Of a DNA stretch of 64,000 nt, positions 30,146 to 53,956 are shown piece by piece. The notes under the pieces were generated by a model. That model saw only the letters and a list, made by a program, of their open reading frames with translations. It ran no database searches and was not told the DNA's origin. Origin of the DNA: an uncultured Alphaproteobacteria bacterium (lineage in GTDB: Bacteria; Pseudomonadota; Alphaproteobacteria; RF32; CAG-239); contig CALXZK010000005.1 in NCBI GenBank assembly GCA_944393225.1, positions 2,767 through 66,766 on the forward strand, given 5' to 3'. Position numbers and translations under genes: made by a program. Each line of letters begins with the position of its first letter. Positions within the stretch are counted from its first letter, which is position 1.

Positions 30146-30910
30146 TTAGACTTCAAAACTCATACCATCATAAGCGAGTTCAAAATCTTCGGGCAATGCC
30201 GCATGGGTTTCTTCATAATCCACACGCGCGGAAAGATGCGTCAAAATCACACGCTCAGGCTTAATGAGCTCTACAATTTTTTTCACATTTTCCAAATCAC
30301 TATGCCCGTTCTTTTCCGGATAAAGACCATTGTTGCATTCAATCAACAAAGTTTTCACACCTTGTAAAACGGATAATCCTTCCTCAGGAATTTCTTCCCA
30401 ATCGGTCACATACGCAAAATCTTTATGACGAAAAGCAGAACAATGCCAACGATGATGCGGCACTTGAAAAGTTTGAAACTTCACACCACAGGCTTCAAAT
30501 TCGCCGACATTCGGACAAACGCGCCAATGTAAACCAGCGCCCTCTTGCTCTTCTCCGTTAAATAAAAACGGATATTCTTGTTTCAAATCTTTTTGTGTTT
30601 CAGCACTTGACCAAACTTCAATGGGGTGATTGAGGACTGAACAAGCACGAGAAAGCTCCGGTACACTGGCAATATGATCATAGTGAGAATGTGTGATAAA
30701 TACGGCATCTAAATCGGTGATGTCATTCTCATTAATTTGCAACCGAAATTCCGGTCCGCAATCAACAGCAAACTTTTTTCCCTCTATTTCCATATATATA
30801 GCAGCGCGATTACGAATATTTTTGGGATGATTGGGAGTAAGTTTACGCCAACTATTAAAAATCATCGGACAACCATAAGCCGAACCGGAACCAAGAACAA
30901 TCACTTTCAT
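30146..30910 (-). CDS. MBL-fold metallo-hydrolase
   Basis: 254 aa. Metallo-beta-lactamase motif ITHSHYDHI (HxHxDH) plus downstream His/Asp ligands. Confidence 0.8.
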   Translation of the reverse strand: MKVIVLGSGSAYGCPMIFNSWRKLTPNHPKNIRNRAAIYMEIEGKKFAVDCGPEFRLQINENDITDLDAVFITHSHYDHIASVPELSRACSVLNHPIEVWSSAETQKDLKQEYPFLFNGEEQEGAGLHWRVCPNVGEFEACGVKFQTFQVPHHRWHCSAFRHKDFAYVTDWEEIPEEGLSVLQGVKTLLIECNNGLYPEKNGHSDLENVKKIVELIKPERVILTHLSARVDYEETHAALPEDFELAYDGMSFEV

Positions 30911-32070: not shown

Positions 32071-32145
32071 TGGGGTGTCGCCAAGTGGTAAGGCAACGGT
32101 TTTTGGTATCGTCATTCGTTGGTTCGAATCCAGCCACCCCAGCCA
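32071..32145 (+). tRNA. tRNA-Gln (anticodon TTG); integration target of the downstream island
   Basis: Cloverleaf: acceptor TGGGGTG/CACCCCA, D-arm GCCA-AGTGGTAA-GGCA, anticodon stem ACGGT/ATCGT with loop TTTTGGT (anticodon TTG), T-arm GTTGG-TTCGAAT-CCAGC, discriminator G plus CCA. Its last 18 nt recur at 45095..45112. Confidence 0.85.
32128..32145 (+). repeat. attL core: 18-bp direct repeat (atccagccaccccagcca), 3' end of tRNA-Gln
   Basis: Identical 18-mer at 45095..45112 (attR). The left copy is the tRNA T-arm/acceptor 3' end. Confidence 0.75.
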
Positions 32146-32156
32146 ATTTTGAACTA

Positions 32157-32190
32157 AAGCCTTGTTTTCACAAGGTTTTTTGTTTTTTAA
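32157..32190 (+). terminator. Hairpin plus T-run just 3' of tRNA-Gln(TTG)
   Basis: gccttg-ttttca-caaggt followed by tttttgtttttt. Confidence 0.5.
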
Positions 32191-32208
32191 ATCTAAAAAA
32201 AATCAAAA

Positions 32209-32232
32209 CTGCTAATAACTTCTGCTAATAAC
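32209..32232 (+). promoter_or_regulatory. Two direct copies of ctgctaataac (putative integrase arm-type sites, attL side)
   Basis: ctgctaataac at 32209..32219 and 32222..32232. The same 11-mer or its reverse complement recurs at 44910..44920, 44981..44990 and 45003..45013 next to attR. Confidence 0.45.
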
Positions 32233-32265
32233 CTCACTGTCATTAGGCTAACTTATGAGGTAAAA

Positions 32266-33996
32266 ATGACAATATTCGACCGAGGTTATTCATTCTACGT
32301 TGTGGTAAATATCCCCCGCCCACTGATTCCCATTTTTAAAAGAAAACAGATTTGGAAATCTTTACATACAAGAGATAAAAAAGTTGCAAATATCAGAAGC
32401 TTGTCTACAATAGCTAGAATAAATGCAATGTTTGTAAGGGAAATGCAAATGAAACACATAAAAGGCTTCGGTGATGAATATGATAAAGATTTTGATATCG
32501 AATTTGACCGTATTTTTTCCAGTGTAAAAAGAATTCAAGAGCCTTACGAATATAGTGATGGAGCTATTGAAGATATTGCACTCGATTTTTGTATAGAACA
32601 AATATCTGAAGATAAAGGAAAGGTTATAAAAAGTGTTGATACTCTCAATTATTATAATCTACTCCTCAAAGAATATATTGAGGAATACCATTTAGGGCAC
32701 TTCGCTGCAATTGAAAGCTCCCTTGAAAGATACCTATACTATAAAAAAATGCAAAAGCCGACTGAATCATGTAAAGAAAATATGCTTCGCGCATTTCTGC
32801 TTGCTTTTATTCAATACTTAGAATTTATCATCGAATACATAAAAGGAGCCGAAATTAGAAATTATCCAATAAAGCTCATATCCTCTCCTCCATTGATTGA
32901 ACAACTACAAAAAACAAACCTTGACCCGATTACTTATAAAAAGCCAAATTTAACTTTAAGCGAGCTTGCAGAAACTTATAATAATGAACTCTCCAGAAAT
33001 AATGTATCTCAAGCCCAAAAAAATAAAATCAATCAAAGAATGCGAGTAATAAGCGAATTGTTAAACAATAAAAAGATTCGCGATATAGAACCTGAAGATC
33101 TACAAGAATTAGTCTTAACTTTGCAATTTTTACCATTAAGACTGAAATCAGAACAGATTGCTCATCTTGATAAAATTATTAATGAAAACAAAAAACACCC
33201 TGAAAAATGCATTTCAGACAAAACTCGCGCTGATTACGTTCAATCTTTAAAATCCATCTTTACATGGGCTTTAAAGCGTAAATATATCAGAGAAAATGTT
33301 ATGGATGAAATAGATATACCGTCTCCCGAAAAAACAAAAGAGATTACAAAATACCAGCCGTTCACCGTGCAGCAATTACAAAAAATATTCCACAGTGACT
33401 TTTATTCCAAACATTGGGATAATAACCGACAACGACGTTCTTTCTTTTGGATTGGGCTACTGGGCTTATATACAGGTGCCAGACTTAATGAAATTTGTCA
33501 GCTCCAATTTGATGATATTCAAGAAGAAGACGGTATTAAATTTATCAGCATAAATGAAAATGACGGCAAGCACGTCAAGACTAAGGCTGGTATACGTAAG
33601 ATTCCGATTCATCAAGAGCTTATCAAATTAGGATTTTTGGAATTTGTAAATTTCATGAAAAAACAAAGTCCTACTAAAAACAAACGCATTTTTATGGATT
33701 TAGAGCCAAACACACGCGGAGAGTTGTCTGCTCAACCGTCTAAATGGTTTGGGAAGCTCCTTGATTCTCTCGGTTTGAAGGACAAAGGACTTGTTTTTCA
33801 CTCGTTCCGCCATACTGTTCGAACGGTTCTACGCAATAACAACTGTCCGATTGACCGCGTACAAAGACTTTGTGGCTGGGAGGGTTCTAATTCCCTCTCC
33901 GAACACTATGGAACAATCAGTATCAAAGTCTTAGCGGACACGTTAAACGAGCAATTAGTATTTGAAGGGTTAAATTTGAGCCATTTATACATTTAA
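32266..33996 (+). CDS. int: Tyrosine-type site-specific integrase
   Basis: C-terminal catalytic signature: R in LYTGARLNEI, HSFRHT (H-x-x-R), GWEGSNSLSEHYG (Tyr nucleophile). It sits adjacent to the tRNA. The ORF is long at 576 aa, so the true start may be downstream. Confidence 0.85.
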   Translation: MTIFDRGYSFYVVVNIPRPLIPIFKRKQIWKSLHTRDKKVANIRSLSTIARINAMFVREMQMKHIKGFGDEYDKDFDIEFDRIFSSVKRIQEPYEYSDGAIEDIALDFCIEQISEDKGKVIKSVDTLNYYNLLLKEYIEEYHLGHFAAIESSLERYLYYKKMQKPTESCKENMLRAFLLAFIQYLEFIIEYIKGAEIRNYPIKLISSPPLIEQLQKTNLDPITYKKPNLTLSELAETYNNELSRNNVSQAQKNKINQRMRVISELLNNKKIRDIEPEDLQELVLTLQFLPLRLKSEQIAHLDKIINENKKHPEKCISDKTRADYVQSLKSIFTWALKRKYIRENVMDEIDIPSPEKTKEITKYQPFTVQQLQKIFHSDFYSKHWDNNRQRRSFFWIGLLGLYTGARLNEICQLQFDDIQEEDGIKFISINENDGKHVKTKAGIRKIPIHQELIKLGFLEFVNFMKKQSPTKNKRIFMDLEPNTRGELSAQPSKWFGKLLDSLGLKDKGLVFHSFRHTVRTVLRNNNCPIDRVQRLCGWEGSNSLSEHYGTISIKVLADTLNEQLVFEGLNLSHLYI

Positions 33997-34289
33997 CCAA
34001 TTGATTTTATGTAAAAAAAATAAAAACACCATTTTTCTTCAAAAGGACTTGACTCGTAACGTTTAATGTTTTATAAGCAAGTTACTCTTTACAAGGAGAG
34101 TATCGTTATACATCATCGTGAATAAGTTGTTATTTGTTAGTACCGTATAGTAATATAGTGGCGAAAATGTCGTTAGTCTTTAATAGTTTTTGCTTAGGGA
34201 AAACATCTTACCAAAAGACACTTTTGATACAAGTTATCAAAGGTTTGCTGGTAAGTAGAATAGCAATTTATTTACAGTAAATTTAGACA

Positions 34290-34318
34290 ACTTGGATTTA
34301 TCCAAGTTTTTTTTATTT
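34290..34318 (+). terminator. Rho-independent terminator
   Basis: acttgga-ttta-tccaagt 7-bp stem followed by ttttttttatttt. Confidence 0.5.
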
Positions 34319-34358
34319 TAAATCACCATCTTTACTTCCACCTTTATCTTTGATCGCT

Positions 34359-34411
34359 TGTCAATAATTTGACATTAGTCGATAACATCTTCCGCTGCGT
34401 CTGATTGTCAA
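34359..34411. promoter_or_regulatory. Palindrome tgtcaataatttgaca plus a third ttgtcaa half-site upstream of the rep-like gene
   Basis: Inverted repeat TGTCAA-TAAT-TTGACA at 34359..34374 and a further ttgtcaa at 34405..34411, 10-60 bp upstream of the 34418 start. Candidate operator or origin. Confidence 0.35.
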
Positions 34412-34417
34412 ATTTTT

Positions 34418-35287
34418 TTGATTAGATTAGCGGGAGATGAAAGTAAGCATATGAATTCATATCGCTATAAAATGCGATACGACCTCTTAAAGCTCAAAAA
34501 ATTTGAAACCGATGCAGAATGCTCTGAACGCAACCAAAAAATAATTCGAGCCCTTGAAAAAGAGCACAAGTTATCAAAGGTTGTAGGTCAATGCATAAAA
34601 GGGTGTGAACCGTTCAGTAGGTGTCAACATATCCTATGTAGTCATTGCAAACGAGAATTCAGGCTTCAATACGTGTCAAAAATTTGCGAATTTCTTGCAC
34701 GACAAAAAAGTGAAAGCTGTATTTATGCCGTAACTTTATTGGAGCCTCTCGATGCAAGCTCTACCAAGGTTATTGATATTGCTAAACTAAAAAACACCCT
34801 TTACCAGAGGCTTAAGCGTCTGTTTGGAAACGAAGTCATTGTTATTGGTGGTTTTGATATATCCTTAAATACTGACGCTAAAAACAGTTGGAAGCCGTTC
34901 TTTCACCCACATTGGCATCTTATTTTTATAACAAAGTTAGACGCCCAATATGTACGTGAAAGACTGAAACATTATTACCATCAAACGGATATAATAAAAC
35001 GGCCTGTTCGCGTGGTTAAAGTTAATAGCTATAAACGAGCGGTTTCTTATATGTTTTCTCCTTATTTTTCAAAGCGTGTTCGATTTCTTAACACGAAACG
35101 GAAAGGAAGGAATCCGTTCTATGATGGAAAGGAGTATAAGCTGAACAGTATTGAAATATGTAAATTGGCTAAAAAGCTTATGCATAACAAAGTCCAAGAC
35201 ATGCTGTTCTTATATGGTGGTCGAAAATATCGTTCATCATCTAAGGAAAAGTCTGTCAATGACTTTGAATTTAAAATCACTCAATAA
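34418..35287 (+). CDS. HUH-motif replication initiator-like protein (rolling-circle Rep family)
   Basis: 289 aa. Motif-1-like IYAVTLLEP, HUH motif FFHPHWHLIFI, and downstream Tyr-containing segments (YKRAVSYMFSPYF). Confidence 0.55.
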   Translation: MIRLAGDESKHMNSYRYKMRYDLLKLKKFETDAECSERNQKIIRALEKEHKLSKVVGQCIKGCEPFSRCQHILCSHCKREFRLQYVSKICEFLARQKSESCIYAVTLLEPLDASSTKVIDIAKLKNTLYQRLKRLFGNEVIVIGGFDISLNTDAKNSWKPFFHPHWHLIFITKLDAQYVRERLKHYYHQTDIIKRPVRVVKVNSYKRAVSYMFSPYFSKRVRFLNTKRKGRNPFYDGKEYKLNSIEICKLAKKLMHNKVQDMLFLYGGRKYRSSSKEKSVNDFEFKITQ

Positions 35288-35484
35288 ATAGGTCTAAACA
35301 CCTATTTCATTCAAACTTTTATTAGTTGTTTGAAAATTGAGTATAACACAGCACCTAGTTGCTGTTTGATTAACCTGTACGGTGAACGAAAGTAATAAAG
35401 TGAGTAAAGAAGAATTTACTCATTATGCTCGACTTTACTCAATTATCAACCGTTCACCGTACTCATACCATATGGAGAAAAAAT

Positions 35485-37188
35485 ATGGCAAATTTAAAAT
35501 TAAAAAAGAAATCATTGACTTACTTAGGTCAACCGATTTGTAATAACCTCTGCATTTCCTGCGGAGAAAATATTGAAAATAATGACATATTAATGATTTA
35601 CGAATATGAAAATATCCGAGGAAGTACTGTCAATGTAGCTGTTCCTTTGTCAAAAGTACGTACTAAAAAACTCTTAAGTCAAATCTTGCTAGATAAAGGC
35701 TTTCCTTTTGATTGGAAAAACAAAGAAATGACTGATGAGATTTGCGAATTTTTGAGCGATTATACTCCTTCATCGGTTATTCTGTTATCACCTCAAACTG
35801 GTTGGTATCAATCTGATGAAGGAAAATATTGCTACATTATGCCTCAAAAAAGTTTTGGCTTTAAATATTTTCGCGTCAAATTTGTCGGTAACAATATCGA
35901 CACAAAATATATAAACCAAGTAGGCAACCTTGAAAATTACCAAAAAGCACTCGAATTATGTCAATACAGTCCTGCAACCATATTAGCTGTTGGGGCTGCC
36001 TTAGCTGCTTTTTGCATTGCTCCGTTTGACTTTGAGACTTTTGGTTTGCATTTTTACGGAAAATCTAGTACCGGAAAATCGACTTTATCTAAAGTTGCTG
36101 CTGCAGTATTATATAACCCTGGGAAATTTATCACTTGGAAAACCACAGAAGCTGGTGTTGAAGAGGCTTGTTACAATCACAATGGTCGTTGCGTTGTTTT
36201 TGATGAAGCAAAGTTAATCTCTAAAGACAAGACTAAAATTGCTTCAATCATTAGTGATTTGAGCTATTTTATTTGTAGTGGCCAGACTAAAAAAAGGAGC
36301 TTAGCATACAGTGTTGGTACAGGAACAAGTGTAGGAGCTTGGAAATTAGTCTTCATAAGCACGGGAGAATTTGGCATCATAGAAAATGCTCTCAGCGTTA
36401 ACCACGAAAAAGACGATGGCGAGAAGCTTCGTTTCATCGATGTCCCTGCTGTAGTATCAGAAGAATATGGGGTATTTCGAAAGTTACCAGAAGGCTACAC
36501 TTCATCAAAAGAGTTAGTCTTTGATATTTTGAATTTGGTTAAAAAAAATTATGGGTGGTTAGGCTATAATTTCCTAAAGAAAATGGCTAGTGAACTAAAT
36601 TCAGACCAGCAAGTGCAATTCAGAGAAAACTTTAAGCAACACATTAAATTCTTTGAAAGTGAGTGCTCTGATGGTAAACACGTTGGATATACGGAACGTT
36701 TTTTATCTCGCTTTGCCATCATTTATGCCAGTTTAATGCAAGCTATGGAATGGCAGCTCATTCCTTGGAGTAAAAAGTGCATTTTTAAGGCCGTAAAAGA
36801 GATGTACTATACCTCTTTAAATTGCATTAAAGATGACCAAGACATTCTGCAAGATGGGTTAAATCGACTTGAAAAAATGTTAAACGTCAAAAACGAACAT
36901 TATCATAACCTAGCGACCTTTTCTTCACAAGAAGACATTCTTAGAGCTTGGGGAAAGCCTAATTTCTTTGGCAAACAAAATGGTAAATACTTTGATTGGA
37001 TTATCCCTTCAAAAACTTTCGTATCATGCTTTACCTCCACCAAGCAAAAGGAATTAGTAGAAGAGTTCCTTGAAGACCTCATTGAAAAAAACGATGATGG
37101 CTATGGTTTATGCAGTTTAGGACACAATGTGCGTAAAAGAGCAATTGTCTTAGACAAAGACAAGCTCAAAAAATTATTATCGAAATAA
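35485..37188 (+). CDS. P-loop NTPase, primase/replicative-helicase-like (phage/plasmid P4-alpha/D5-like)
   Basis: The ORF track gives 35425. The ATG at 35485 follows a GGAGA RBS. N-terminal Cys cluster CNNLCISCGE, Walker A GKSSTGKST and Walker B VVFDEA. Confidence 0.55.
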   Translation: MANLKLKKKSLTYLGQPICNNLCISCGENIENNDILMIYEYENIRGSTVNVAVPLSKVRTKKLLSQILLDKGFPFDWKNKEMTDEICEFLSDYTPSSVILLSPQTGWYQSDEGKYCYIMPQKSFGFKYFRVKFVGNNIDTKYINQVGNLENYQKALELCQYSPATILAVGAALAAFCIAPFDFETFGLHFYGKSSTGKSTLSKVAAAVLYNPGKFITWKTTEAGVEEACYNHNGRCVVFDEAKLISKDKTKIASIISDLSYFICSGQTKKRSLAYSVGTGTSVGAWKLVFISTGEFGIIENALSVNHEKDDGEKLRFIDVPAVVSEEYGVFRKLPEGYTSSKELVFDILNLVKKNYGWLGYNFLKKMASELNSDQQVQFRENFKQHIKFFESECSDGKHVGYTERFLSRFAIIYASLMQAMEWQLIPWSKKCIFKAVKEMYYTSLNCIKDDQDILQDGLNRLEKMLNVKNEHYHNLATFSSQEDILRAWGKPNFFGKQNGKYFDWIIPSKTFVSCFTSTKQKELVEEFLEDLIEKNDDGYGLCSLGHNVRKRAIVLDKDKLKKLLSK

Positions 37189-37226
37189 AAATCAAGGCGG
37201 TTGGTTTTCGGACTAGCCGCCTTTTT

Positions 37227-37799
37227 TTATAGGTAATTATATATGGTACGCCTAGATACGCCATATTTTTGAGCTATTGCTGTAATCGGGACGCGTTGAT
37301 TAATAAGCTCCTTTATCTCTGCAACTTGCTCTGCACTAAGCTTCGGTTGGCCTCCTTTATATTTACCTTTAAGCCTACCGAGATTTATGCCTTCTCTCTG
37401 CCTTTCTAATATAAGGTTGCGCTCAAGCTCTGCAACAGCCCCTAACATCGTCATCATCATTTTTTGGTATGGGTCTTGTTTGTCGGGAGCAAAAGTCAAG
37501 TTTTCTTTATGAAAAATAATCTTAGCTCCTTTGTGGGTTATTTCTTCAACCAGATTTAACAAATCTTTTGTATTGCGGGCAAGTCTGTCCATTGAGTGAC
37601 AGTTAACCACATCTCCAGCACGAAGATTCAGCAACATGGCTTGAAGTTCAGGACGGTTGGTATCTTTACCACTGATTTTTTCAACATACTCTCGGTCGCA
37701 AGAAATATCTAAAAGCTGTCGTTCTGTATTTTGGTCGATGGTGGAAACGCGTTTATAATTGAAAATCATATTTTTTACTCCTTTATGTGAAATTGACAT
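37227..37799 (-). CDS. Serine recombinase (resolvase/invertase family)
   Basis: 190 aa. Catalytic Ser in YKRVSTIDQNTERQ, plus a C-terminal HTH (KYGVSRRTIYNYL). Confidence 0.85.
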   Translation of the reverse strand: MSISHKGVKNMIFNYKRVSTIDQNTERQLLDISCDREYVEKISGKDTNRPELQAMLLNLRAGDVVNCHSMDRLARNTKDLLNLVEEITHKGAKIIFHKENLTFAPDKQDPYQKMMMTMLGAVAELERNLILERQREGINLGRLKGKYKGGQPKLSAEQVAEIKELINQRVPITAIAQKYGVSRRTIYNYL

Positions 37800-37888
37800 T
37801 TATAACCCCATTGCGCAGGTGTGCAATAAATGCGGTTTTTGATTTTGTTTTCACAGTTTTTCGCCTGTGAATATAGGGTATACTTTGT

Positions 37889-38416
37889 TTACACAGCCTC
37901 CAGAGAGAGGAAATATACCTGACGAAGACATATTTGATACTTCTTGAAATCAGCGGTATCTATGCTCTTGAGAAGGATATCTTCTAAGTCGGAGCTATCA
38001 TAAAATTGTATTTGGCTTTTGGTTATCCTTCTTATAACGGTGTAGTGGTCGATTTTCTCGCTTCTAATACGAATGTGAGTAACCCTACCCTCTGCGGATT
38101 GTTGTTTTACATAATCGATAAATTCGGTTAAAGTAAGACGCTTATTCCAAAATGGACGATAATACACAAACTTTTTATTGCAGTTAGTTGTCAGCCACTC
38201 ATTTGCATATTTGAAAACAACTTCTAAAAGTCGGTAGTCTGCTCCATTAGCATTTAAATCAAACAAAACATCTAAACAACTAATCCCAAATATCAGATGG
38301 TCATAAAGCTCCTGCCATTCGTTATATTTGAGCTTTAAGCCAAGAGCCTGTAGCGCGTTGAGTGTTGAGTAAACCGAACAATACCTTGAAAAATATCCTT
38401 GGTTAAAAGCTTTCAT
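37889..38416 (-). CDS. Hypothetical protein (last gene of a small three-gene operon)
   Basis: 175 aa. Its start overlaps the upstream gene's stop (ATGA). Has a conserved-looking Cys (SRYCSVYSTLNALQ) and a later His (DHYTVI), but I assign no family. Confidence 0.5.
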   Translation of the reverse strand: MKAFNQGYFSRYCSVYSTLNALQALGLKLKYNEWQELYDHLIFGISCLDVLFDLNANGADYRLLEVVFKYANEWLTTNCNKKFVYYRPFWNKRLTLTEFIDYVKQQSAEGRVTHIRIRSEKIDHYTVIRRITKSQIQFYDSSDLEDILLKSIDTADFKKYQICLRQVYFLSLEAV

Positions 38417-38751
38417 CAGTATTCATCCGCAAACATAATGGTTAAGACACGGTTGGTTTGTGTCTCATCGTCAGGCTGTGGAGAATAAAACTCATAATTC
38501 AAGTCATACATATCAATTTTCCAGAAGATTTGTTGTCCACGATATTCAAAACAGCCAAAGTCGTGTTCACCATACGGATCGTTATCTTCCGTAAAATTAT
38601 TGAAGGTTCTGACTTTTTGCATAATCTCTTGTTGTTGCATCAGTGGTAAAGCTGATACACCGCAAGTCAACAGCACCTTGCCACCTTCAAAAGTCTTACG
38701 GAACTTGTCGTTTTGTTCTGCATTTTTTTTCAAATCAATTTTATTTTCCAT
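38416..38751 (-). CDS. Hypothetical protein, possibly DUF3768-like
   Basis: 111 aa. The motif NDPYGEHDFGCFEY...IFWKIDMYD resembles what I recall of the DUF3768 family. Uncertain. Confidence 0.5.
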   Translation of the reverse strand: MENKIDLKKNAEQNDKFRKTFEGGKVLLTCGVSALPLMQQQEIMQKVRTFNNFTEDNDPYGEHDFGCFEYRGQQIFWKIDMYDLNYEFYSPQPDDETQTNRVLTIMFADEY

Positions 38752-38765
38752 ATCGCACCTCCTTT

Positions 38766-38969
38766 TTACTCAACATCAAACCAAGCCATCGTTGTGGCTA
38801 ATAAATTATTGTAGTCACCGGACATAGCTTCTTTCATAAATTGGTCGATTTCTTCTTGTGGGAGGTGTGCTCGTTGCATAGCTCTCTTACATAAGCCTAA
38901 AATCATAAATGCATTACCGTCTTGTCCCGAAAGCTGAACGGTAATTTCCGGATGTTTGATTTTTGTCAT
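38766..38969 (-). CDS. Small hypothetical protein (first gene of the operon)
   Basis: 67 aa, 14 bp upstream of the next ORF on the same strand. Confidence 0.4.
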   Translation of the reverse strand: MTKIKHPEITVQLSGQDGNAFMILGLCKRAMQRAHLPQEEIDQFMKEAMSGDYNNLLATTMAWFDVE

Positions 38970-39335
38970 TGTTTTACTCCTTTAAAATAAAAAAAGAGCC
39001 TCAACACAAGGTTGAAGCTCAAAACGTTACAATTTAGGTGGACGATATGCCCGATAACAAACTTATTTCTGAATTTGTAGGTTATTGGTGACATATCGTC
39101 CTCCTTTCACACCAAAACAAAACCTTATCCGCTCTGATGAAAAAGCGAACTATAGAGGCCTAAATTTTGGTGATTTATATTTGAAGTCAAAACGAATCGA
39201 CTCAACTTCAAATATAATATATTATAACATATTCTAACATAAATTGCAAGTTTAAAATCAACAAAAATCAAGGAAAATCAATAAATTAAATAATAATTTT
39301 GACATATAAACCAAGTTTATTTTAGGAGTAAAAAA

Positions 39336-39506
39336 ATGAATGAATTAACGACAATTCGAAAAATATTGGAGCGTCTTACAAAATACATCACAAAAAAGAA
39401 GGGATACATTTGTCAATATTGTGGGCATAGAAGCCTTCAACCATATGGGGGTAAATGCACACAATCTAAATCCGGCCACCACCACTACATCGCTGCGGAA
39501 CATTAG
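39336..39506 (+). CDS. Small Cys-containing ORF (56 aa), not in the supplied track
   Basis: A strong SD (TAGGAGT) sits 6 nt before the ATG. Translation: MNELTTIRKILERLTKYITKKKGYICQYCGHRSLQPYGGKCTQSKSGHHHYIAAEH, with C-x2-C...C and an HHH run. Confidence 0.3.
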   Translation: MNELTTIRKILERLTKYITKKKGYICQYCGHRSLQPYGGKCTQSKSGHHHYIAAEH

Positions 39507-39689
39507 AAAGGATAACTTTTAAGACAAAAGTTCTAACAAGAAAAGATTATGCGCACTAACTAAAAACTATCCAGATACTTTTTTCCATATTTTCCTTCAT
39601 TCCTGAAGTCATCGCATTAATTTTGCGACGCGTTGTATATAAATTGCGATTTGTGCATTGATTGGTCAGAAAAACGCGGGGAAAATGCA

Positions 39690-40451
39690 TTATTTTTCAA
39701 ACCATACTTTTGGATAAATCTCTTCCCAACCGGAATTGTGGCTTGCGTTTTTAACCTTAATTATCAAATCTTCATTTCCGACAAACTGTTCCACCAGCAC
39801 CGGAGGGATTACTATGTCTTTTGTTCCGACATAGTGGATTTGCGGAAGCTCTGCAAATTGATGACGATAATCAGCCAAGTTCATTGATTCATTAAGTGGG
39901 GGTAAGTTATGATATTGTGTCCACGCTAAATGGTCGAGATTTCCTGCAATGGTGATGATTTTTTTGATATTCAAACCATTTTTAGCCGAAGCCACTAAGC
40001 CTGCGATTTGCGCACCACCTGAAAACCCGATTAAAATCACCGAATGCACCCCCGCAATTTGTTTGATAGCCTCATATTCTGCATTAACGACCTCATGCGC
40101 AAATCGAGCCGTTGTCCAATGTCTTTGAGAACAAATCGGGCTTTTGACATACTGACAAGGTCTTGCAAGATAAATAACATTCGGGCTATTGTCTCCAAAA
40201 GCCAACTCACGAACCAACACTCCTTTGGGTGTCGGGTCTTGTGTGGGGCGTCCGTGTGCATTAAATGCATAACCGTCCCCTTCTATGTATATTTTATATA
40301 CCCCATTAGGCTCCGTGATTTTTTGCCAACTTGCAATTGTGAAATCTCTCGTTGCAATTTCTTTATATTCATATGACGGAGGAACGGAAACACTTTGGCA
40401 TCCGCTCAATAAAAAAATCGCAACTAAAATTTTATAAAAGCCATTTCTCAT
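39690..40451 (-). CDS. Lipoprotein alpha/beta-hydrolase (esterase/lipase, GxSxG)
   Basis: 253 aa. Lipobox LLSGCQS and the nucleophile elbow ILIGFSGGAQIAG. Confidence 0.7.
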   Translation of the reverse strand: MRNGFYKILVAIFLLSGCQSVSVPPSYEYKEIATRDFTIASWQKITEPNGVYKIYIEGDGYAFNAHGRPTQDPTPKGVLVRELAFGDNSPNVIYLARPCQYVKSPICSQRHWTTARFAHEVVNAEYEAIKQIAGVHSVILIGFSGGAQIAGLVASAKNGLNIKKIITIAGNLDHLAWTQYHNLPPLNESMNLADYRHQFAELPQIHYVGTKDIVIPPVLVEQFVGNEDLIIKVKNASHNSGWEEIYPKVWFEK

Positions 40452-40539
40452 AGTTCATTATTTGCACAAGATTGTTAAAAAAAAAGAAAATACCTTGCAA
40501 CCAAACAGTTACAAGGTATTTCATGCTGCAGATTAAGCC

Positions 40540-43242
40540 TTAAAATTTATATTTTAAGTTAACCAAACCGGTGTGGTCTTGGTAATCTTCACGGAATTTA
40601 CCTTCATAACCTAATGCAAATTCAACATTATCGTTGACTTCTGCGGTTACCCCAGCGCCAAATTCCATACCGAAACGGTCTAATGCATCACCTTCAACCA
40701 TATAAGCCGAACCGTTAGCCAAAGTTACAACTGAATTAACGTCATCGTTCATCAAGTCATAAGTGGCTGCAATTCTGGCTTCCGGCTTAATGTTCATACC
40801 GTTTTCAAGTGTCCAAGTCTTGCTGACTTTAGCCCCGATAACACCTGTTAGGATATCGGAATCATTACCGGAGACTTTTTGGTCGGCTGAATCTGTATAG
40901 CCGTCTTGGCTGATGTGAACATAACGTAAACCAACCTCAGGAGTTAAACCAAAGCCTTTAACTTGCATATCATAACCTGTCATGGCTTGCAAACCAAAGG
41001 TTTCAACATCATAATCAGCTTTAACACCAATTCCTGAAATGGTTTTGTCTTCGGAATAATCAGACCAACCATAAGATGCGATACCGTTCACATACCAGTT
41101 GCTGGGTTTATATTCGCCATAAACAAAAGCTGTATGAGTGTCAACATCGGTACTTCTCATAAAGCCGTCAATGTCGGTATTGGTATAAGCATAACCCAAA
41201 CCGATTTTGGTGTCTTCGGTAACATATTTTTCAGCACCCATTGCAACACCTGAACTATCAGCATCAAAACCATAAGATTTTGATGTGTCATCAAGTTTAG
41301 ATTTATTAAACAAGCCTTGAACCCACATAGCTGCACGTTCAAAAATATTATCACCGGAAGACATACCTTCACCACCGGTTGAAACGGAACCACCGGTTAA
41401 ACGTGTACTGACAGCTCCAAACACTTGGTTAGCTGTTTCGGTTTGTGTCTTTTGAACCATCGGTGCAACTTCCGGCGCAACCGCGGTCAATGCATCAACA
41501 TAAGCTTTCTTGTCATTTTGAGACAAATTATTTAATTTTGAGGCAATAGATTGAGCCGTAGCACTGACTGACGTATTGTCTTTCATACCGTCCCATGCTT
41601 CAGCCGTAGAAGCATTACTTGATGTACCTCCTGCATCGTTAACTACATCAGAAGCTGAGTTTTCATATTTAATATTATAAGTTCCACCATCTATTGAGGT
41701 AATTTTATAACGATTGTTAGAAATCTCATTAGTGAAGTTGTTATCAAACTTTCCGGTTGTTTCAAACAAAGTGATGTTATCACTATCCCCGATTTCCATA
41801 GTTTTACTAATTGTCAAAGCCAGTTTAGAGCCTTCATCCGCATGAATATTGCGAGCTGACAGTAAACCGTTTCCTTCATCAGTAACAGACATATTCAAAG
41901 TTGAACCAGCATCAAAAGTGATGTCACCACCGATTGTGGCCTTATTCAAGCCCACATTCATCACACCACCGTTAGAGATTTCAACACTTCCTGCAATTTT
42001 AGAATTGCTGTTTTGAATATTGATTGTTCCTGGGCTTTCAATATTTGCATTTAATGTTCCGGCCAAATTTAATATGGCACCAGATCTTAAATCAATATCA
42101 CTGTCTTCATCAACACTAGCCCAGCCCAGACTTGAATTTTCAGCAATATTAACCGTACCTCCGGAAATATCAACGGGATTTTGAGTTTCAAAAGTGGTTG
42201 AATCTTTGATATTTAATGTACCACCCGACATTGCAATATTGGTGCCCCAAATGCGGTTGCCATTACCAGACATATTAACTGTACCACCTTTGACGTTCAG
42301 CTTATCGTGTGCATACAGGCCATCACCACCTTCAATAACATTCACCGAACCGTTAGAAATGGTAATATTTCCTTGTTCAGCTCCGATATCGGTTGCCGTA
42401 ACTTCACCACCGCTGATATTGACATCACCTTTACCGTAGTTGCCGATTTCCGTACCGTTAATAGTGCCGCCGGAGATATTCAAATCACCGGTATTTTTTT
42501 TGGTCAAAGAAATACGGGCACCGTCTTTTAAGTTGATTTCACCGCCGGTAATGTTAATGTTGCCGGTTGAAACATGGTAATTATCCTTATCGGCACCTTC
42601 CGGAGCTGTACCTTGACCATCGTTTTCACCCAAGGTTTCACCGGTTTCCGAATTATAATACCAATCGCCATCATAACCGCCACGTTCAATTTTAGCAACT
42701 TCTCCGGTTAAATTAATTTTACCACCGGAAATATTAATATCACCGCTTTGACCTTCATGCAGGATACCACCATTATGCAAATCATCTCCTGCAACTTCCG
42801 AAGAATAATCCATCGTGATATTTGCATTTCCGCCTATATTTAAATTTCCCTTACCAACAAGTGTAATTTCACCACCATCTTTTATGTTAAAATTACCACC
42901 TGTGACATCTATATCTGCGGCTGTTGTATTATATTGGCCTTGATTTCCTTCGGCATAAATACCTGCACCAGCCGAAAAATCAAATGTTCCGCCACTTATT
43001 TCAAATTTGTTTTTTGTTGCACCATCATTAAGTTGTGCTAAGCCACTATCACCGGTTGCCGTAATTGTTCCTCCGGAAACATTAATATTTCCGGTTGTTG
43101 CATAGTTCTTTGCATTTTCTTCCGTAATGGTTGTATCAGAATTAATAGAAATATCTTCTGTGATATGTTCATCTTCCGCATAAACATTAGTTGCACTGAG
43201 GACGACGACTAATGCTGTTGAAAATAAAAGTCTATTTTTCAT
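40540..43242 (-). CDS. Autotransporter (type Va): repetitive Gly/Thr/Asn-rich beta-helix passenger plus C-terminal beta-barrel
   Basis: 900 aa. Signal peptide. Passenger has degenerate GGT(I/V)N... repeats. C-terminal ~280 aa have alternating hydrophobic beta-strands and end in ...NLKYKF (terminal aromatic). Confidence 0.85.
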   Translation of the reverse strand: MKNRLLFSTALVVVLSATNVYAEDEHITEDISINSDTTITEENAKNYATTGNINVSGGTITATGDSGLAQLNDGATKNKFEISGGTFDFSAGAGIYAEGNQGQYNTTAADIDVTGGNFNIKDGGEITLVGKGNLNIGGNANITMDYSSEVAGDDLHNGGILHEGQSGDINISGGKINLTGEVAKIERGGYDGDWYYNSETGETLGENDGQGTAPEGADKDNYHVSTGNINITGGEINLKDGARISLTKKNTGDLNISGGTINGTEIGNYGKGDVNISGGEVTATDIGAEQGNITISNGSVNVIEGGDGLYAHDKLNVKGGTVNMSGNGNRIWGTNIAMSGGTLNIKDSTTFETQNPVDISGGTVNIAENSSLGWASVDEDSDIDLRSGAILNLAGTLNANIESPGTINIQNSNSKIAGSVEISNGGVMNVGLNKATIGGDITFDAGSTLNMSVTDEGNGLLSARNIHADEGSKLALTISKTMEIGDSDNITLFETTGKFDNNFTNEISNNRYKITSIDGGTYNIKYENSASDVVNDAGGTSSNASTAEAWDGMKDNTSVSATAQSIASKLNNLSQNDKKAYVDALTAVAPEVAPMVQKTQTETANQVFGAVSTRLTGGSVSTGGEGMSSGDNIFERAAMWVQGLFNKSKLDDTSKSYGFDADSSGVAMGAEKYVTEDTKIGLGYAYTNTDIDGFMRSTDVDTHTAFVYGEYKPSNWYVNGIASYGWSDYSEDKTISGIGVKADYDVETFGLQAMTGYDMQVKGFGLTPEVGLRYVHISQDGYTDSADQKVSGNDSDILTGVIGAKVSKTWTLENGMNIKPEARIAATYDLMNDDVNSVVTLANGSAYMVEGDALDRFGMEFGAGVTAEVNDNVEFALGYEGKFREDYQDHTGLVNLKYKF

Positions 43243-43263
43243 ATGATTAAACTTCCTTCTTCT

Positions 43264-43277
43264 TTAATTGCAATTAA
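43264..43277. promoter_or_regulatory. Perfect 14-bp palindrome TTAATTGCAATTAA in the autotransporter 5' region
   Basis: Self-complementary 14-mer ~22 nt upstream of the autotransporter ATG, next to its AGGAAG RBS. A near-identical TTAATTTGCAATTAA lies at 43567..43581. Confidence 0.45.
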
Positions 43278-43566
43278 AAGAAAACCACCTATTTAAGGTG
43301 GTCGGAGAGTTCATCAATCATATTGCGTTAAATGATTCTCTTAGCCTTTAAAGTCAAAAAACTTCTGAACATACGCCAAAAGCTCCCCGACCATATTTCT
43401 ATGTATCGGGGATATATTTACCGTCAGCTATGATGAGTAGCCAACAATATAACGATGTTATATCCTAACACCGAACGCAATAGAGCCGATGAAAGCCCCG
43501 TACCACTAAAGGTACTGATTATGGAGCATTTCCCCATAACTGAGTTTATATTATAAACCAAGGTCT

Positions 43567-43581
43567 TAATTTGCAATTAAA
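43567..43581. promoter_or_regulatory. Second copy of the TTAATT(T)GCAATTAA palindrome
   Basis: One-base variant of the 43264 palindrome, ~300 bp away within the same intergenic region. Confidence 0.4.
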
Positions 43582-43725
43582 ATTATGGAGCTGTGCGAAA
43601 AATATTTTGTTTTGCGCGTTTTCCTTGTCAGCCAATGCATATACGGTTGTTTTATGATAAATTTATCGTCAAAACTCAATTCCTACACTCAAAACGCAGG
43701 AAAACGACGGGGAACAGTATATTTA

Positions 43726-44796
43726 CTAAAAAATCATTTCATATTTTTCAGCTAATTGATAAGTTCTAGCCTTTTTTGACTCATTAGCATATTGCAAAAA
43801 ACCTTCCGCTACCCACTGGCGCAATAAAAATCGGGCCGATGCTGCTGAAAGCTCTAAAATTTCCGCAATTTGCGTGCTGTTGACTTCCTTATACTCTGCA
43901 AACAACTCTAAAACTTTGCGTTGCTTAATATCTAATTCACGCAATATCGGGCTTTTATCTGTCGTGTAGCCTTTGGTTTGTTCATTTGCCGCATGTTGAT
44001 TAACTTTATCAAAAGCATCTGCCACACCGGCCACAAAATATTCCAACCATGAAGTTATGTCTGCTTCATTCCTGCCGTAATAATAATTATGATGCGGATG
44101 CGTTTGTAATGCATCATAATAACGGATTAAATCTTTTGCATAATATTCTTCCAAAGAATAAATTCCCTTTAGACCATAACCGCCTTTACGCATAACAAAA
44201 CTTGTCAATAATCGTGCGGTTCGGCCATTTCCGTCATAATAAGGGTGTATGGTTACAAACTGATAATGCACTATTCCTGCCACCAATGGAACCGGTAAAT
44301 TAGTTGCATTTTGCACCCATTGGCAAAAATCTCGCATCATCTCCGGCACATCTTTGGCTTCCGGCGGCAAATAAATTTTGGCTCCGGTTTCGCTATCATA
44401 AATGGCATTTTGATTATCTCGGTATGGTATTATACTTTGGCTAGCCTCAACCAAACTATGAATATGTGCAATCAGCTCTTCATCAAAAGAATGATTAGCC
44501 ACAACAGCTTCTTCCATTGCATTCCAAGCCTTATAGTAAGCCTTAACTTCCTGCTCGTCTTTTTCTCTTTGAGGAAGTTTTCGACCATTTAGAGCTTCTG
44601 CAACCTCTTTTCCGCTCAGACGATTACCTTCAATTTGCGTTGAATAGTGAATTGTGGCCACTTTTGCACTTTCTCGCAATGATAACAAAAGTTGTGGTGA
44701 TATGGGTTGATTTTCAAACTGCTGCTTTATAACTTCTATTTTTGAAAGATTTGCAAGCATCTGAGCTGTTACTGTATATTTCGGACGAAAAGCCAT
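43726..44796 (-). CDS. Fic family protein (class II, N-terminal inhibitory helix), putative AMP-transferase
   Basis: 356 aa. Fic motif HPYYDGNGRTARLL. An upstream STQIEGN matches the (S/T)xxxE(G/N) inhibitory motif. The C-terminal region is wHTH-like. Confidence 0.9.
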   Translation of the reverse strand: MAFRPKYTVTAQMLANLSKIEVIKQQFENQPISPQLLLSLRESAKVATIHYSTQIEGNRLSGKEVAEALNGRKLPQREKDEQEVKAYYKAWNAMEEAVVANHSFDEELIAHIHSLVEASQSIIPYRDNQNAIYDSETGAKIYLPPEAKDVPEMMRDFCQWVQNATNLPVPLVAGIVHYQFVTIHPYYDGNGRTARLLTSFVMRKGGYGLKGIYSLEEYYAKDLIRYYDALQTHPHHNYYYGRNEADITSWLEYFVAGVADAFDKVNQHAANEQTKGYTTDKSPILRELDIKQRKVLELFAEYKEVNSTQIAEILELSAASARFLLRQWVAEGFLQYANESKKARTYQLAEKYEMIF

Positions 44797-45094
44797 GACA
44801 ATTCCTTTAATGTTATTTTTACATTAAAATAGCATTATTTTTACATTAAATCAACATTAAAATAATTTATTTCGTTTGTTTAAGAAACACACTTTACACG
44901 CCCTTAAAAGTTATTAGCAGTGAAAATTTGCTCACAAGCCTTGATATGCCTGATTGACAGCGAATTTGTGCTAATATATTTTATTAGCAGTGCTAATGAA
45001 AACTGCTAATAACTTTGAGGTTTACACCCCAGACGATATTTTGGTAAGCTATTGATTTTACGCAAAACTAGGTTTTATGGGTTGGTATTGACGC

Positions 45095-45112
45095 ATCCAG
45101 CCACCCCAGCCA
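45095..45112 (+). repeat. attR core: duplicated 3' end of tRNA-Gln
   Basis: atccagccaccccagcca is identical to 32128..32145. It is not part of a complete tRNA here. Confidence 0.75.
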
Positions 45113-45500
45113 CAGAATACAAACCGTCAGAAATGACGGTTTTTTCTTTATATATCAAGCATTTATACTGGTTCGGATGTTTAAAAGTCAAAATAGGCTT
45201 TTTTTGAGCAACATCCGAACTTTTGTATTACCAATCTTTGTATTTCAATAGCTTACGGGATTTTAATCGATTTCGTATCTCACCTGAAAGATATTATACC
45301 TCTCCAGACTCGATATTGTTTTTGCAACTTATCGCCATCAATGACTTGAGGTTGTCATAAAAATTACATACATATTGAATTTTACCACTCCTTTTTGATA
45401 AACAGCAATATTGATAATAATAAGTATAAATTTATAATTGAATTAACTTCTATTTTAAATTACATTGTATAAAAACAACATTTACAACTAAAGGATTAAA

Positions 45501-46034
45501 ATGACAAATATAATATTTTTAGGCGGAATTCATGGCTCAGGAAAAAATTTTATATTACAACACGCAAATTTTCAAAATAACATAACTCCCCTAACTGCAA
45601 GTGAGGTTTTAAAGTGGAAAGATTTTAGCGAAAATCCTAACGACAAGAAAGTTAGTTCCATTTCTGACACACAAAATTTATTAATTTCCAATCTAAAAAA
45701 AATAATAACAAACGACGGATTTTATATACTCGATGGACATTTTGTTCTCTTAAACAAAGACGGTCAAATAGAACGCATACCTGAAACTACTTTTTCTGAA
45801 ATTAACCCCAAAGCTTTGATTATTAAAACAGCTTCTCCAAATTCAATACTTGAAAGATTAAAACAGAGAGATAATTGTACTTGGAGCACATCTCTAATTT
45901 CAGACATGCAAAAAGAAGAAATTCAATATGCCAAAGAAATTTCATTAAAACTAAATATAAAATTATATCATATTGAAGATAATCAAGAATCTTTACTGAG
46001 CCAAATAATTAATTCGGAGTTTAATAATGGTTAA
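45501..46034 (+). CDS. Small P-loop kinase-like ATPase (AAA_33 / nucleotide-kinase-like)
   Basis: 177 aa. Walker A IIFLGGIHGSGKNF and a Walker-B-like FYILDGHF. The stop overlaps the next gene's start (ATGGTTAA). Confidence 0.6.
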   Translation: MTNIIFLGGIHGSGKNFILQHANFQNNITPLTASEVLKWKDFSENPNDKKVSSISDTQNLLISNLKKIITNDGFYILDGHFVLLNKDGQIERIPETTFSEINPKALIIKTASPNSILERLKQRDNCTWSTSLISDMQKEEIQYAKEISLKLNIKLYHIEDNQESLLSQIINSEFNNG

Positions 46035-47541: not shown

Positions 47542-47896
47542 ACCTGAGTTCGTAGAAAAAATATTTTCAGGAGAAAAGCGTTTTGAATATAGAAAAAATA
47601 TATTCAAAAATATTGCTATTGAATCTATCGTTATCTATTCGACAATGCCCGTTGGCAAGATTGTTGGTGAATTCAAGTTCAAGACTATTCATAAAAATAC
47701 CCCAAAAATAATTTGGAAAGAGACAAAAAAGTATTCTGGGATTTCAGAAGATTTCTTTTTTAACTATTTTGAAAATAAAAAAGAAGCTTGTGCTATAGAG
47801 ATTAGTGAAGTTCATAAATATAAAACACCTATAGATCCACATAGTTTGTTACCTAACTTTGTAGCCCCTCAATCATTTTGTTATTTAGACTTATAG
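47519..47896 (+). CDS. ASCH-domain protein
   Basis: 125 aa. N-terminal LLSIKPEFVEKIFSGEKRFEYRK is the classic ASCH signature. Overlaps the preceding gene by 23 nt. Confidence 0.7.
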   Translation: MKVLLSIKPEFVEKIFSGEKRFEYRKNIFKNIAIESIVIYSTMPVGKIVGEFKFKTIHKNTPKIIWKETKKYSGISEDFFFNYFENKKEACAIEISEVHKYKTPIDPHSLLPNFVAPQSFCYLDL

Positions 47897-47922
47897 AAGT
47901 ATAAAAAATATCTAATATATCC

Positions 47923-51110: not shown

Positions 51111-51111
51111 G

Positions 51112-51978: not shown

Positions 51979-51982
51979 AAAC

Positions 51983-53953: not shown

Positions 53954-53956
53954 AGA

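Follow-up and report, generated by a model that had tools for sequence, protein, structure and literature searches.

Is the DNA between a tRNA gene and a second copy of its 3′ end a mobile element, and if so, of which kind, and by what means might it replicate and move? We address this question for a 64,000-nucleotide (nt) stretch of DNA from an uncultured Alphaproteobacteria bacterium (assembly GCA_944393225.1, contig CALXZK010000005.1, positions 2,767 to 66,766; hereafter, the window), in which the end of a tRNA-Gln(UUG) gene recurs 13 kb downstream. The segment in between is a well-supported and fairly ordinary kind of tRNA-borne genomic island that comes from an undescribed family. Beyond that, the 12,967 bp at 32146-45112 are, in our judgement, likely to constitute a helper-dependent integrative element that occupies the 3′ end of tRNA-Gln(UUG), replicates by the rolling-circle mechanism and carries a cargo slot.

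An earlier reading of this locus, made from the letters of the sequence and referred to here as the sequence-only reading, had described the last 18 nt of the tRNA as being repeated exactly at 45095-45112, and a sequence search agrees. The repeat, ATCCAGCCACCCCAGCCA, occurs exactly twice in the 64 kb (the attL and attR cores in Table 1), also when up to three mismatches are permitted, and is found zero times in 100 dinucleotide-preserving shuffles, with zero occurrences expected by chance; with one mismatch, it stretches to 21 nt. The same reading placed an integrase gene 120 bp past the tRNA, which fits the start of the open reading frame (ORF) at 32266, and each of the other genes that it named was found where it had put them.

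Syntenic loci were fetched from 80 species-level genomes by way of the aminoacyl-tRNA synthetase gene (27796-29160 in the window). All 80 are metagenome-assembled genomes (MAGs) of uncultured gut Alphaproteobacteria from human, mouse, rabbit and ruminant, some labelled 'Azospirillum sp. 51_20'-like, and most of the loci keep the gene order synthetase, HAD, (metallo-β-lactamase), tRNA-Gln(ttg). In three related MAG contigs (L009, L060 and L025; loci are cited by such numbers throughout), the tRNA 3′ end runs directly into the sequence found in the window from 45113 onwards, with 96-99% identity over 112-241 bp. The synthetase protein of L009 is 100% identical to that of the window, its flanking DNA is 93-97% identical, and the tRNA sequence is the same in both. 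A four-way alignment shows the empty site to be, base for base, what results from joining the left half of attL to the right half of attR; 32146-45112 is therefore a discrete insertion and not a chance repeat. The unoccupied tRNA-Gln locus that the sequence-only reading had suggested looking for thus exists in these relatives, and the locus combines tRNA-duplicating direct repeats, an adjacent intact integrase gene and an unoccupied site, the features of a tRNA-integrated genomic island. A terminator hairpin that the island brings with it, and which an alignment of sibling islands shows to be kept on their attL side, stands in for the native tRNA terminator, now displaced beyond attR.

The integrase matches Pfam DUF6538 (7e-12) and Phage_integrase (7e-13) as well as the PHROG 1 integrase family (8e-39). 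Its catalytic residues are readable as R (in ARLNE), HxxR (in HSFRH) and Tyr (in EHY), and the enzyme is intact as judged from its sequence. Every exact copy of the 10-mer CTGCTAATAA in the window, five in all, is found no more than 200 bp from an att core, 7 of the window's 15 copies of the heptamer TGCTAAT fall within the 330 bp near these cores, and arm motifs cluster likewise at both ends of two sibling islands (L098 and L099). We infer that the CTGCTAATAA copies are candidate arm-type integrase sites and that the DUF6538 N-terminal domain could be the arm-binding domain; a full-text literature search turned up nothing for DUF6538, nor for DUF3768, a second domain of the island described below. 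The predicted attP junction of the excised circle would read ...TTGACGC followed by ATCCAGCCACCCCAGCCA and ATTTTGAAC..., and the predicted attB junction would be the tRNA followed by CAGAATACAAACC. A scan of Joint Genome Institute (JGI) metagenome contigs, a collection in which the island itself is absent, gave zero matches to the attP junction and then to a pattern shared by attL and attP.

With the Rep and orf175 proteins of the core as queries, we retrieved sibling islands, which always lie at tRNA-Gln(ttg) wherever the contig includes the tRNA. The islands in L098 and L099 are complete, their exact 18-bp repeats being separated by 16.0 and 17.0 kb, and L004 holds a tandem array with an internal att copy that matches at 17 of 18 positions; in some others the integrase is broken (L002/L003 and L005-L007). 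In L012, which represents another species-level lineage, the integrase end of the island is identical to ours at 99.5% of nucleotides over 1.8 kb, as against 87.1% for the adjoining 5.6 kb of chromosome. In L046, the rep-helicase segment is 97% identical, the flank 74% and the integrase region 80%, and the islands are therefore also mosaic. Taken together, these loci show that the element inserts site-specifically at a tRNA, is precisely missing from relatives, has recently spread from one lineage to another and combines a conserved core with a variable cargo slot. Many MAG contigs (L010, L025, L026, L039, L040, L045, L049, L059, L066, L077 and L088) break off no more than ~200 bp from the 3′ end of tRNA-Gln, as expected where strains vary in the DNA downstream.

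The conserved core consists of the DUF6538 integrase, the HUH (histidine-hydrophobic residue-histidine) Rep, a DUF927 helicase, a serine resolvase, a papain-fold protein, a DUF3768 protein and orf67. The set recurs in the same order in most sibling loci that span it, the exceptions being L002/L003, without the serine resolvase and orf67, and L051, without Rep and helicase.

The central question about replication concerns orf289, which the sequence-only reading had guessed from motifs to be an HUH Rep. This protein, whose true start is likely the ATG at 34451 or 34472, has no match in Pfam, NCBIfam or PHROG, and its close homologues number only 18, all metagenomic, which share four invariant cysteines followed by AVTLLEP, HPHWHLIF and SYMFSPYFSK. 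In orf289 itself, AVTLLEP (residues ~104-110), HPHWHL (163-168) and SYMFS (210-214) stand as motifs I, II and III in the order of the Rep class, with the tyrosine C-terminal to HUH. A profile search of 1.84 billion cluster representatives yielded 771 relatives; in an alignment of 61 of them (19-47% identity), C63, C69 and C77 are invariant, and C74, H165 (consensus PHxHL) and Y211 (consensus SYxxK) are at least 90% conserved. The AlphaFold (AF2) model of orf289 (predicted local distance difference test, pLDDT, 70; predicted template-modelling score, pTM, 0.72) has a β-α-β-β-α-β-α core. With Foldseek, its best match in the PDB is RepB of pMV158 (E 2.6e-3, probability 1.0), and there are 27 matches at E ≤ 1e-3 in BFVD, all named ones being Reps of Microviridae or other viruses; the model thus shows the HUH fold, though with template-modelling (TM) scores of just 0.3-0.5.

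At the level of curated families, orf289 matches none of the Rep families searched (Pfam Rep_1, Rep_trans, G2P and others). Among the 61 relatives, the only replication-protein families reached in Pfam were Rep_1 (by 3 of the 61, at 3e-4 and below the gathering score) and REP_ORF2-G2P, both weakly, together with one match to the phage family DUF3653. The family profile found nothing relevant among PDB sequences and no relative in the 2.9 million viral contigs of IMG/VR. Considering (i) the motif order, (ii) the conservation in 61 homologues and (iii) the fold matches to RepB and Microviridae Reps, which uphold the earlier guess, we accept orf289 as a predicted HUH Rep of an unclassified family. 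A distant homologue (24% identity) lies on Salmonella pIndS104-CTX (L089, 156127-172642) in the order int, hypothetical gene, AlpA, Rep-like gene, with IS2 and a YobI-like NTPase adjoining, an arrangement which shows that the Rep family is present in enterobacterial integrative modules too. The spacer between int and rep contains short hairpins with a fold z-score of only −1.7 to −2.0; because it is not significantly structured, we propose no origin with confidence.

Immediately downstream, the 587-amino-acid P-loop protein contains a DUF927 domain (Pfam 1e-32, 114 bits against a cut-off of 22.6 bits) in addition to Walker A and B motifs, the combination that identifies a self-loading helicase of the DUF927 type. 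In the PDB, it matches Cch (5dgk, 2.7e-7) of the staphylococcal cassette chromosome mec (SCCmec) and a protein (8tch, 1.6e-5) of the Staphylococcus aureus pathogenicity islands (SaPIs); its score against the NCBIfam equivalog for SCCmec Cch1, 55 bits against a cut-off of 700 bits, does not indicate orthology. Relatives with Toprim and a zinc ribbon, ~900 amino acids long, are found no closer than 22-24% identity. Of the 'P-loop primase/helicase-like' protein of the sequence-only reading, the helicase thus stands and the primase falls, as there is no primase domain. Genes for Rep and helicase are also adjacent in Azospirillum argentinense p1, at ~24% identity.

The serine resolvase, also named in that reading, is borne out by both of its family matches (Table 1). 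A 192-amino-acid tyrosine recombinase occupies its slot in L002 and L003, which suggests a generic job, such as multimer resolution; the latter is favoured also because no convincing long inverted repeats, as would suit an invertase of a defined segment, were found. Three further genes complete the minus-strand core operon. The model of orf175 (pLDDT 85) matches a Parachlamydia deubiquitinase, PeiR, C39 peptidase domains and SpeB in Foldseek, and the protein is predicted to have a papain-like fold (deubiquitinase-, C39- or transglutaminase-like), without family assignment. The DUF3768 gene is found in every sibling island, and orf67 is conserved in siblings. At the border of core and cargo lies a 56-amino-acid zinc-ribbon-like ORF with no family match.

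Between the core and the right arm lies the cargo slot, which varies among siblings. The cargo given by the sequence-only reading (an autotransporter, an esterase lipoprotein and a class II Fic protein) is present. The autotransporter displays the two features that define type Va, a C-terminal 12-strand β-barrel domain (PF03797, 3.9e-54 over residues 639-880) and an N-terminal signal peptide (N-terminus MKNRLLFSTALVVVLSATNVYA). In the Fic protein, STQIEG (~52-57) lies N-terminal to HPYYDGNGRTAR (~184-195) in the same chain, which is the class II arrangement of an inhibitory [ST]xxxE[GN] before HxFx[DE]GNGRxxR. Against the PADLOC SoFic model, this protein gives a full-length match (1.7e-50); with the NCBIfam SoFic equivalog it reaches 56.7 bits where the cut-off is 550 bits, and phmmer aligns it to the solved SoFic at just 7e-8. 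It also matches PHROG 5978. Siblings fill this slot with defence genes: DRT2 and a type I restriction-modification (RM) system in L005; AbiP2, RhuM/PDC-S05 and a type I RM system in L002; a set of methylase, Abi_alpha and ResIII in L091-L096; GmrSD and HipA in L097; an OLD-type ATPase with a UvrD helicase (Gabija-like) in L098 and L101; and LmuB-type, Lamassu-like genes in L099 and L102. As it matches the PADLOC model but is only weakly similar to the solved SoFic and stays far below the equivalog cut-off, we describe the Fic protein as SoFic-like. The earlier reading had listed it as a candidate for host interaction; in view of the full-length match and of these siblings, a role in anti-phage defence is at least as likely. 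The overlapping palindromic repeats just before the Fic gene (44800-44867), with two copies of TTTTTACATTAAA inside a 32-nt inverted repeat, resemble an operator for the C-terminal winged helix-turn-helix (wHTH) of the protein.

The remaining cargo has relatives at the same hotspot. Homologues of the esterase (69-72% amino acid identity) occur beside tRNA-Gln in L008, L041, L073 and L076, and those of the autotransporter (32-50% identity) in L030, L041 and L073. In L041 (1-9000) and L073 (1-8500), the two form a pair without the core of this island, adjoined in L041 by a G2P-like Rep and large serine recombinases and in L073 by an OLD-family ATPase; in L008 (4880-5630), the esterase is found on the opposite side of the tRNA. 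As these homologues stand beside tRNA-Gln outside the island family, they belong to the hotspot's flexible gene pool and are not an exotic import.

Upstream of orf67, and on its strand, a conserved promoter precedes ~250 nt of structured leader, at whose end lies an intrinsic terminator. The leader folds with z-scores of −5.4 and −6.0 against shuffles, and a covariance model detects it once, at full length, in the corresponding position of 13 sibling loci. Across nine distinct copies, 89.7% of cells are paired, compared to 37-47% when partners are slid, and compensatory changes are present in 31 of 65 pairs, compared to 4-8 when slid, with 0 of 500 shuffles reaching the observed values; these statistics stem from an alignment fitted to the model and lean towards structure, and RNAalifold on a plain MAFFT alignment of nine copies retains just the first hairpin and the terminator. 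An Rfam search of the island at E ≤ 1 returned only the tRNA and chance-level matches, and no leader family. Because G-U pairs are frequent, the element is specific to one strand, which speaks for an RNA leader rather than a double-strand site. Candidate roles are those of an attenuator or riboswitch-like leader, of a small RNA or of a single-strand origin, and the leader could serve as a switch by which the island senses a helper or another signal. We offer, tentatively, the broader proposal that the island exemplifies an undescribed family of replicative, defence-carrying islands of gut Alphaproteobacteria, in which a new HUH Rep is combined with a primase-less DUF927 helicase and a new leader RNA gates the core operon.

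Table 1 Features of the island and of its attachment sites, in window coordinates (aa, amino acids; RBS, ribosome-binding site)
Feature	Coordinates	Strand	Evidence and remarks
tRNA-Gln(UUG), anticodon ttg	32071-32145	+	Integration target; ARAGORN; Rfam tRNA 56.7 bits
attL core, 3′ 18 nt of the tRNA	32128-32145	+	ATCCAGCCACCCCAGCCA
Island-borne terminator hairpin	32156-32179	+	Terminator scan; stands in for native tRNA terminator
Two direct CTGCTAATAA copies, candidate P′ arm integrase sites	32209-32231	+	Starts 32209 and 32222
Tyrosine integrase, 576 aa	32266-33996	+	N-terminal DUF6538, C-terminal catalytic domain
Int-rep spacer, candidate double-strand origin (putative)	33997-34417		Conserved with siblings
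orf289, Rep-class HUH endonuclease with N-terminal Cys4 zinc finger	34418-35287	+	Predicted
DUF927 P-loop helicase, 587 aa	35425-37188	+	Walker A GKSSTGKST, Walker B VVFDE; no primase domain
Small serine recombinase, resolvase/invertase type, 190 aa	37227-37799	-	Pfam Resolvase 3.5e-35 and HTH_7; PHROG 125 3.5e-61
orf175, predicted papain-fold Cys hydrolase, conserved core	37889-38416	-	Invariant Q6, C13, H124, D140
DUF3768 protein, conserved core	38416-38751	-	Pfam DUF3768 1.4e-34
orf67, 67-aa core protein, first gene of minus-strand core operon	38766-38969	-	PHROG 1933 1e-24 (family of unknown function)
Promoter TTGCAA-17-TATAAT and structured leader, ~250 nt	38974-39249	-	Upstream of orf67; promoter/terminator scan
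Intrinsic terminator of the leader	39020-38996	-	Immediately before orf67 RBS
Zinc-ribbon-like ORF, 56 aa (CxxCG...GGKC), core/cargo border	39336-39506	+	69-aa homologue at the same place in L002
α/β-hydrolase (esterase) lipoprotein, lipobox LLSGC	39690-40451	-	Weak Abhydrolase_1 and FSH1 matches
Type Va autotransporter, 900 aa	40540-43242	-	Pfam Autotransporter beta-domain 3.9e-54; TIGR01414
Class II Fic protein, C-terminal wHTH, SoFic-like	43726-44796	-	Pfam Fic 8e-17; Fic_N match
Three exact CTGCTAATAA copies, candidate P arm sites	44911-45012	44911(-), 44981(-), 45003(+)	Motif scan
attR core, exact copy of tRNA 3′ end	45095-45112	+	ATCCAGCCACCCCAGCCA
Native tRNA terminator	45121-45142		After attR; terminator scan; same place as in empty sites

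For the helper-dependent, rolling-circle element that we regard as the likely reading, we propose the following course of events. The integrase would bind the CTGCTAATAA arms through its DUF6538 N-domain and recombine the 18-bp core, whereby the tRNA is restored and supplied with a new terminator. The excised circle would be copied by rolling-circle replication: the HUH Rep would nick an origin, probably in the int-rep spacer, and thus provide a 3′-OH primer, and the DUF927 helicase would unwind the DNA. Priming from the Rep nick would explain why the adjacent helicase is missing a primase domain. The serine resolvase, or in some siblings the small tyrosine recombinase at the same position, would resolve multimers. 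No structural, packaging or conjugation family was matched by any island ORF of at least 50 amino acids in Pfam, NCBIfam or PHROG, so transfer is probably helper-dependent, and the element would move from cell to cell with a conjugative element or a phage. The slot between the core and the right arm would hold the cargo: here the esterase lipoprotein, the autotransporter and the SoFic-like Fic protein, and anti-phage systems in the siblings.

Several observations weigh against this proposal. No excisionase of the Xis or AlpA type was recognised in the island, and no origin or nick site was identified, the int-rep spacer being not unusually structured. Neither an excised circle nor an attP junction was seen in the sole collection scanned, which does not contain the island. 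The fold matches of orf289 come with TM-scores of 0.3-0.5 and a model pLDDT of 70, and the protein could act as a relaxase and not as a replication initiator. Finally, the comparison of GC content with the backbone, which the sequence-only reading had recommended, is not diagnostic: the island, at 36.6%, differs only modestly from the left flank at 39.4%, and the right flank is at 32.4%.

Rep-related HUH proteins act as relaxases in many integrative mobilizable elements (IMEs) and integrative and conjugative elements (ICEs), where they are of the MOBT type. On this precedent, the island might be an IME, an alternative that we consider possible but doubtful: orf289 would be a Rep-type relaxase that nicks an oriT, a co-resident conjugative plasmid or ICE would transfer the single strand, and the helicase and the resolvase would aid establishment in the recipient. 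The island has its own integrase and matches no type IV secretion system or coupling protein family in Pfam and NCBIfam, as in IMEs; a small resolvase is a typical plasmid gene; and the strand-specific structured element upstream of the core operon would suit this reading. A conserved DUF927 gene and RhuM or restriction-modification cargo are also found in the Vibrio islands MGIVchHai6 and MGIVflInd1 (PMC7449626), and RhuM/PDC-S05 recurs in one of the sibling islands. However, the DUF927 gene is dispensable for the mobilisation of MGIVchHai6 (PMC7449626), and our searches found no canonical relaxase, coupling protein, MobI-like factor or recognisable oriT, the Rep-class HUH protein being the sole relaxase candidate. 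No conjugative element is visible within the window.

The island might instead be a phage satellite akin to phage-inducible chromosomal islands (PICIs) or P4, which we regard as rather unlikely. A helper phage would induce excision, Rep and helicase would amplify the element, and the helper's capsids would package it, with the defence cargo benefiting host and satellite alike. Size (13-17 kb), the position of int at one end followed by a replication module, the relationship of its helicase to the SaPI helicase 8tch and the defence-gene hotspot next to the core all agree with such an element, and DUF927 proteins are counted among PICI primases (PMC10111431). Phage families are matched by orf67 (PHROG 1933) and by the Fic protein (PHROG 5978). 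Nevertheless, PHROG and Pfam searches of the island ORFs found none of the genes that mark a satellite, be it an AlpA- or Stl-type regulator, a small terminase, or a capsid-remodelling, capsid-hijacking or packaging gene. The Rep family has no relative in IMG/VR, which is weak negative evidence, and an HUH Rep is not known from any PICI.

That the repeats mark an old insertion, with the island now a fixed, immobile remnant whose genes the host has domesticated, is very unlikely. The broken integrases of L002/L003 and L005-L007, a GC content close to that of the host and the lack of a circular form in the JGI contigs, which do not contain the island, are in line with it, but the direct repeats are exact, the 576-amino-acid integrase is intact, catalytic residues included, a lineage with 87% chromosomal identity has the island at 99.5% identity, and presence or absence differs among close relatives. 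As to orf289 being an IS91/ISCR-type HUH transposase, with replication left to the helicase, the likeness (a Cys4 zinc finger followed by HUH and the nearby Y211 and Y216, as in Y2 transposases, which combine a zinc finger, HUH and two nearby tyrosines) is so outweighed by the lack of a match to the Y2_Tnp or Zn_Tnp_IS91 models even at E = 10, by the conservation of just Y211 in the wider family, by the helicase gene that, where present, directly follows orf289 both in integrase-bounded islands of gut MAGs and in the Azospirillum pair (in Salmonella pIndS104-CTX, IS2 takes that place), and by best fold matches to plasmid and phage Reps that we consider the idea highly improbable.

Directly right of attR, a low-GC (~30%) defence region (45501-57860) holds the candidate system PDC-M11A/B (46027-47896), a type I RM system (hsdM at 49602, hsdS at 52660 and hsdR at 54801) with unknown genes interspersed, DUF2130 and an AAA_17 kinase-like gene. 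This hsdM is 95% nucleotide-identical to cargo of the sibling element in L051, which suggests decayed tandem elements; as no further degenerate att copies with up to 4-5 mismatches occur in the window, the region cannot be shown to be a bounded older island. The first ~240 bp past attR (45113-45353) carry, besides the native tRNA terminator, a hairpin with an 11-bp stem (GTTCGGATGTT...AACATCCGAAC). They are 96-99% identical in L025 and L060, whose flanking genes are only 75-77% identical, so this stretch is younger than the chromosome or has been exchanged independently of it. Further right, in very low-GC DNA (59667-62827), a C5 cytosine DNA methylase (540 amino acids) is followed by a G2P/ORF2-type HUH Rep (342 amino acids); homologues follow tRNA-Gln in L033 and L082 and precede the sibling island in L002, and the pair is probably part of a second, unrelated mobile element. 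On the other side, two genes left of the tRNA, a metallo-β-lactamase-fold gene (30146-30910) with a precomputed Pfam match to Anti-Pycsar_Apyc1 is present in many, not all, relatives, and an adjacent 327-amino-acid gene is variably present too.

By itself, the island is one more tRNA-borne genomic island and will not surprise a specialist; the family picture and the leader are somewhat more interesting. With exact boundaries and empty sites, the analysis defines a family of mobile elements in common uncultured gut Alphaproteobacteria that repeatedly uses a single hotspot to ferry surface proteins and anti-phage systems (DRT2, AbiP2, Gabija-like, Lamassu-like, RM and SoFic-like Fic). Three families of no known function, namely the Rep-class HUH family (~770 cluster representatives), DUF3768 and the papain-fold protein, are placed in a functional context. 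The predicted HUH nickase and the stand-alone helicase of the superfamily 3 (SF3) type would make a clean case of such a pairing in a bacterial island, and the conserved structured leader, the most novel by-product, is testable as a regulatory RNA.

How does the island compare with known systems? With SaPIs and other PICIs it shares site-specific integration, a size of ~13-15 kb, int at one end, a self-loading helicase of the DUF927 type, accessory or defence cargo and, probably, helper dependence. Unlike them, it has no master repressor, AlpA, packaging-interference or terS gene in Pfam and PHROG searches, adds an HUH Rep and a serine resolvase, resides in an alphaproteobacterial host and is absent from IMG/VR. 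P4-like satellites carry an integrase beside a tRNA, a primase-helicase gene and a variable anti-phage slot (AbiP2-, retron- or Gabija-type). The island has a corresponding integrase, replication helicase gene and defence slot, but no homologues of psu, delta, sid, epsilon or alpA, and its helicase is primase-less and accompanied by an HUH Rep. Actinomycete ICEs (AICEs) of the pSAM2 type integrate into a tRNA by a tyrosine integrase and, after excision, replicate as rolling circles from an HUH Rep. The tRNA site, the integrase and the HUH Rep are thus common to both, whereas AICEs carry an FtsK-like transfer gene and Xis, do not carry a DUF927 helicase, and differ in host phylum and Rep family.

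In SCCmec and related cassettes, the replicative helicase Cch (DUF927) is likewise preceded by a partner gene, in keeping with the 5dgk and Cch1 matches described above. These cassettes, however, insert at rlmH by large serine recombinases (CcrAB or CcrC), whereas the island uses a tyrosine integrase at a tRNA and encodes only a 190-amino-acid resolvase, which scores 61 bits against a cut-off of 900 bits with the CcrB model. The mobilizable genomic islands (MGIs) of Vibrio that are mobilised by IncC or SXT/R391 elements (MGIVchHai6-like and MGIVflInd1) resemble it in their tyrosine integrase, conserved DUF927 gene and RhuM, restriction-modification or resistance cargo, and, like the island in all probability, they are unable to transmit themselves (PMC7449626). 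They differ in that they insert at trmE or yicC and not at a tRNA, carry AcaCD/SetCD boxes, Xis/RdfM and an oriT, and are without an HUH Rep, resolvase, DUF3768 or papain-fold gene. The island would thus work like the helper-dependent replicative islands (PICI/P4, SCCmec and the Vibrio MGIs) but belongs to none of them.

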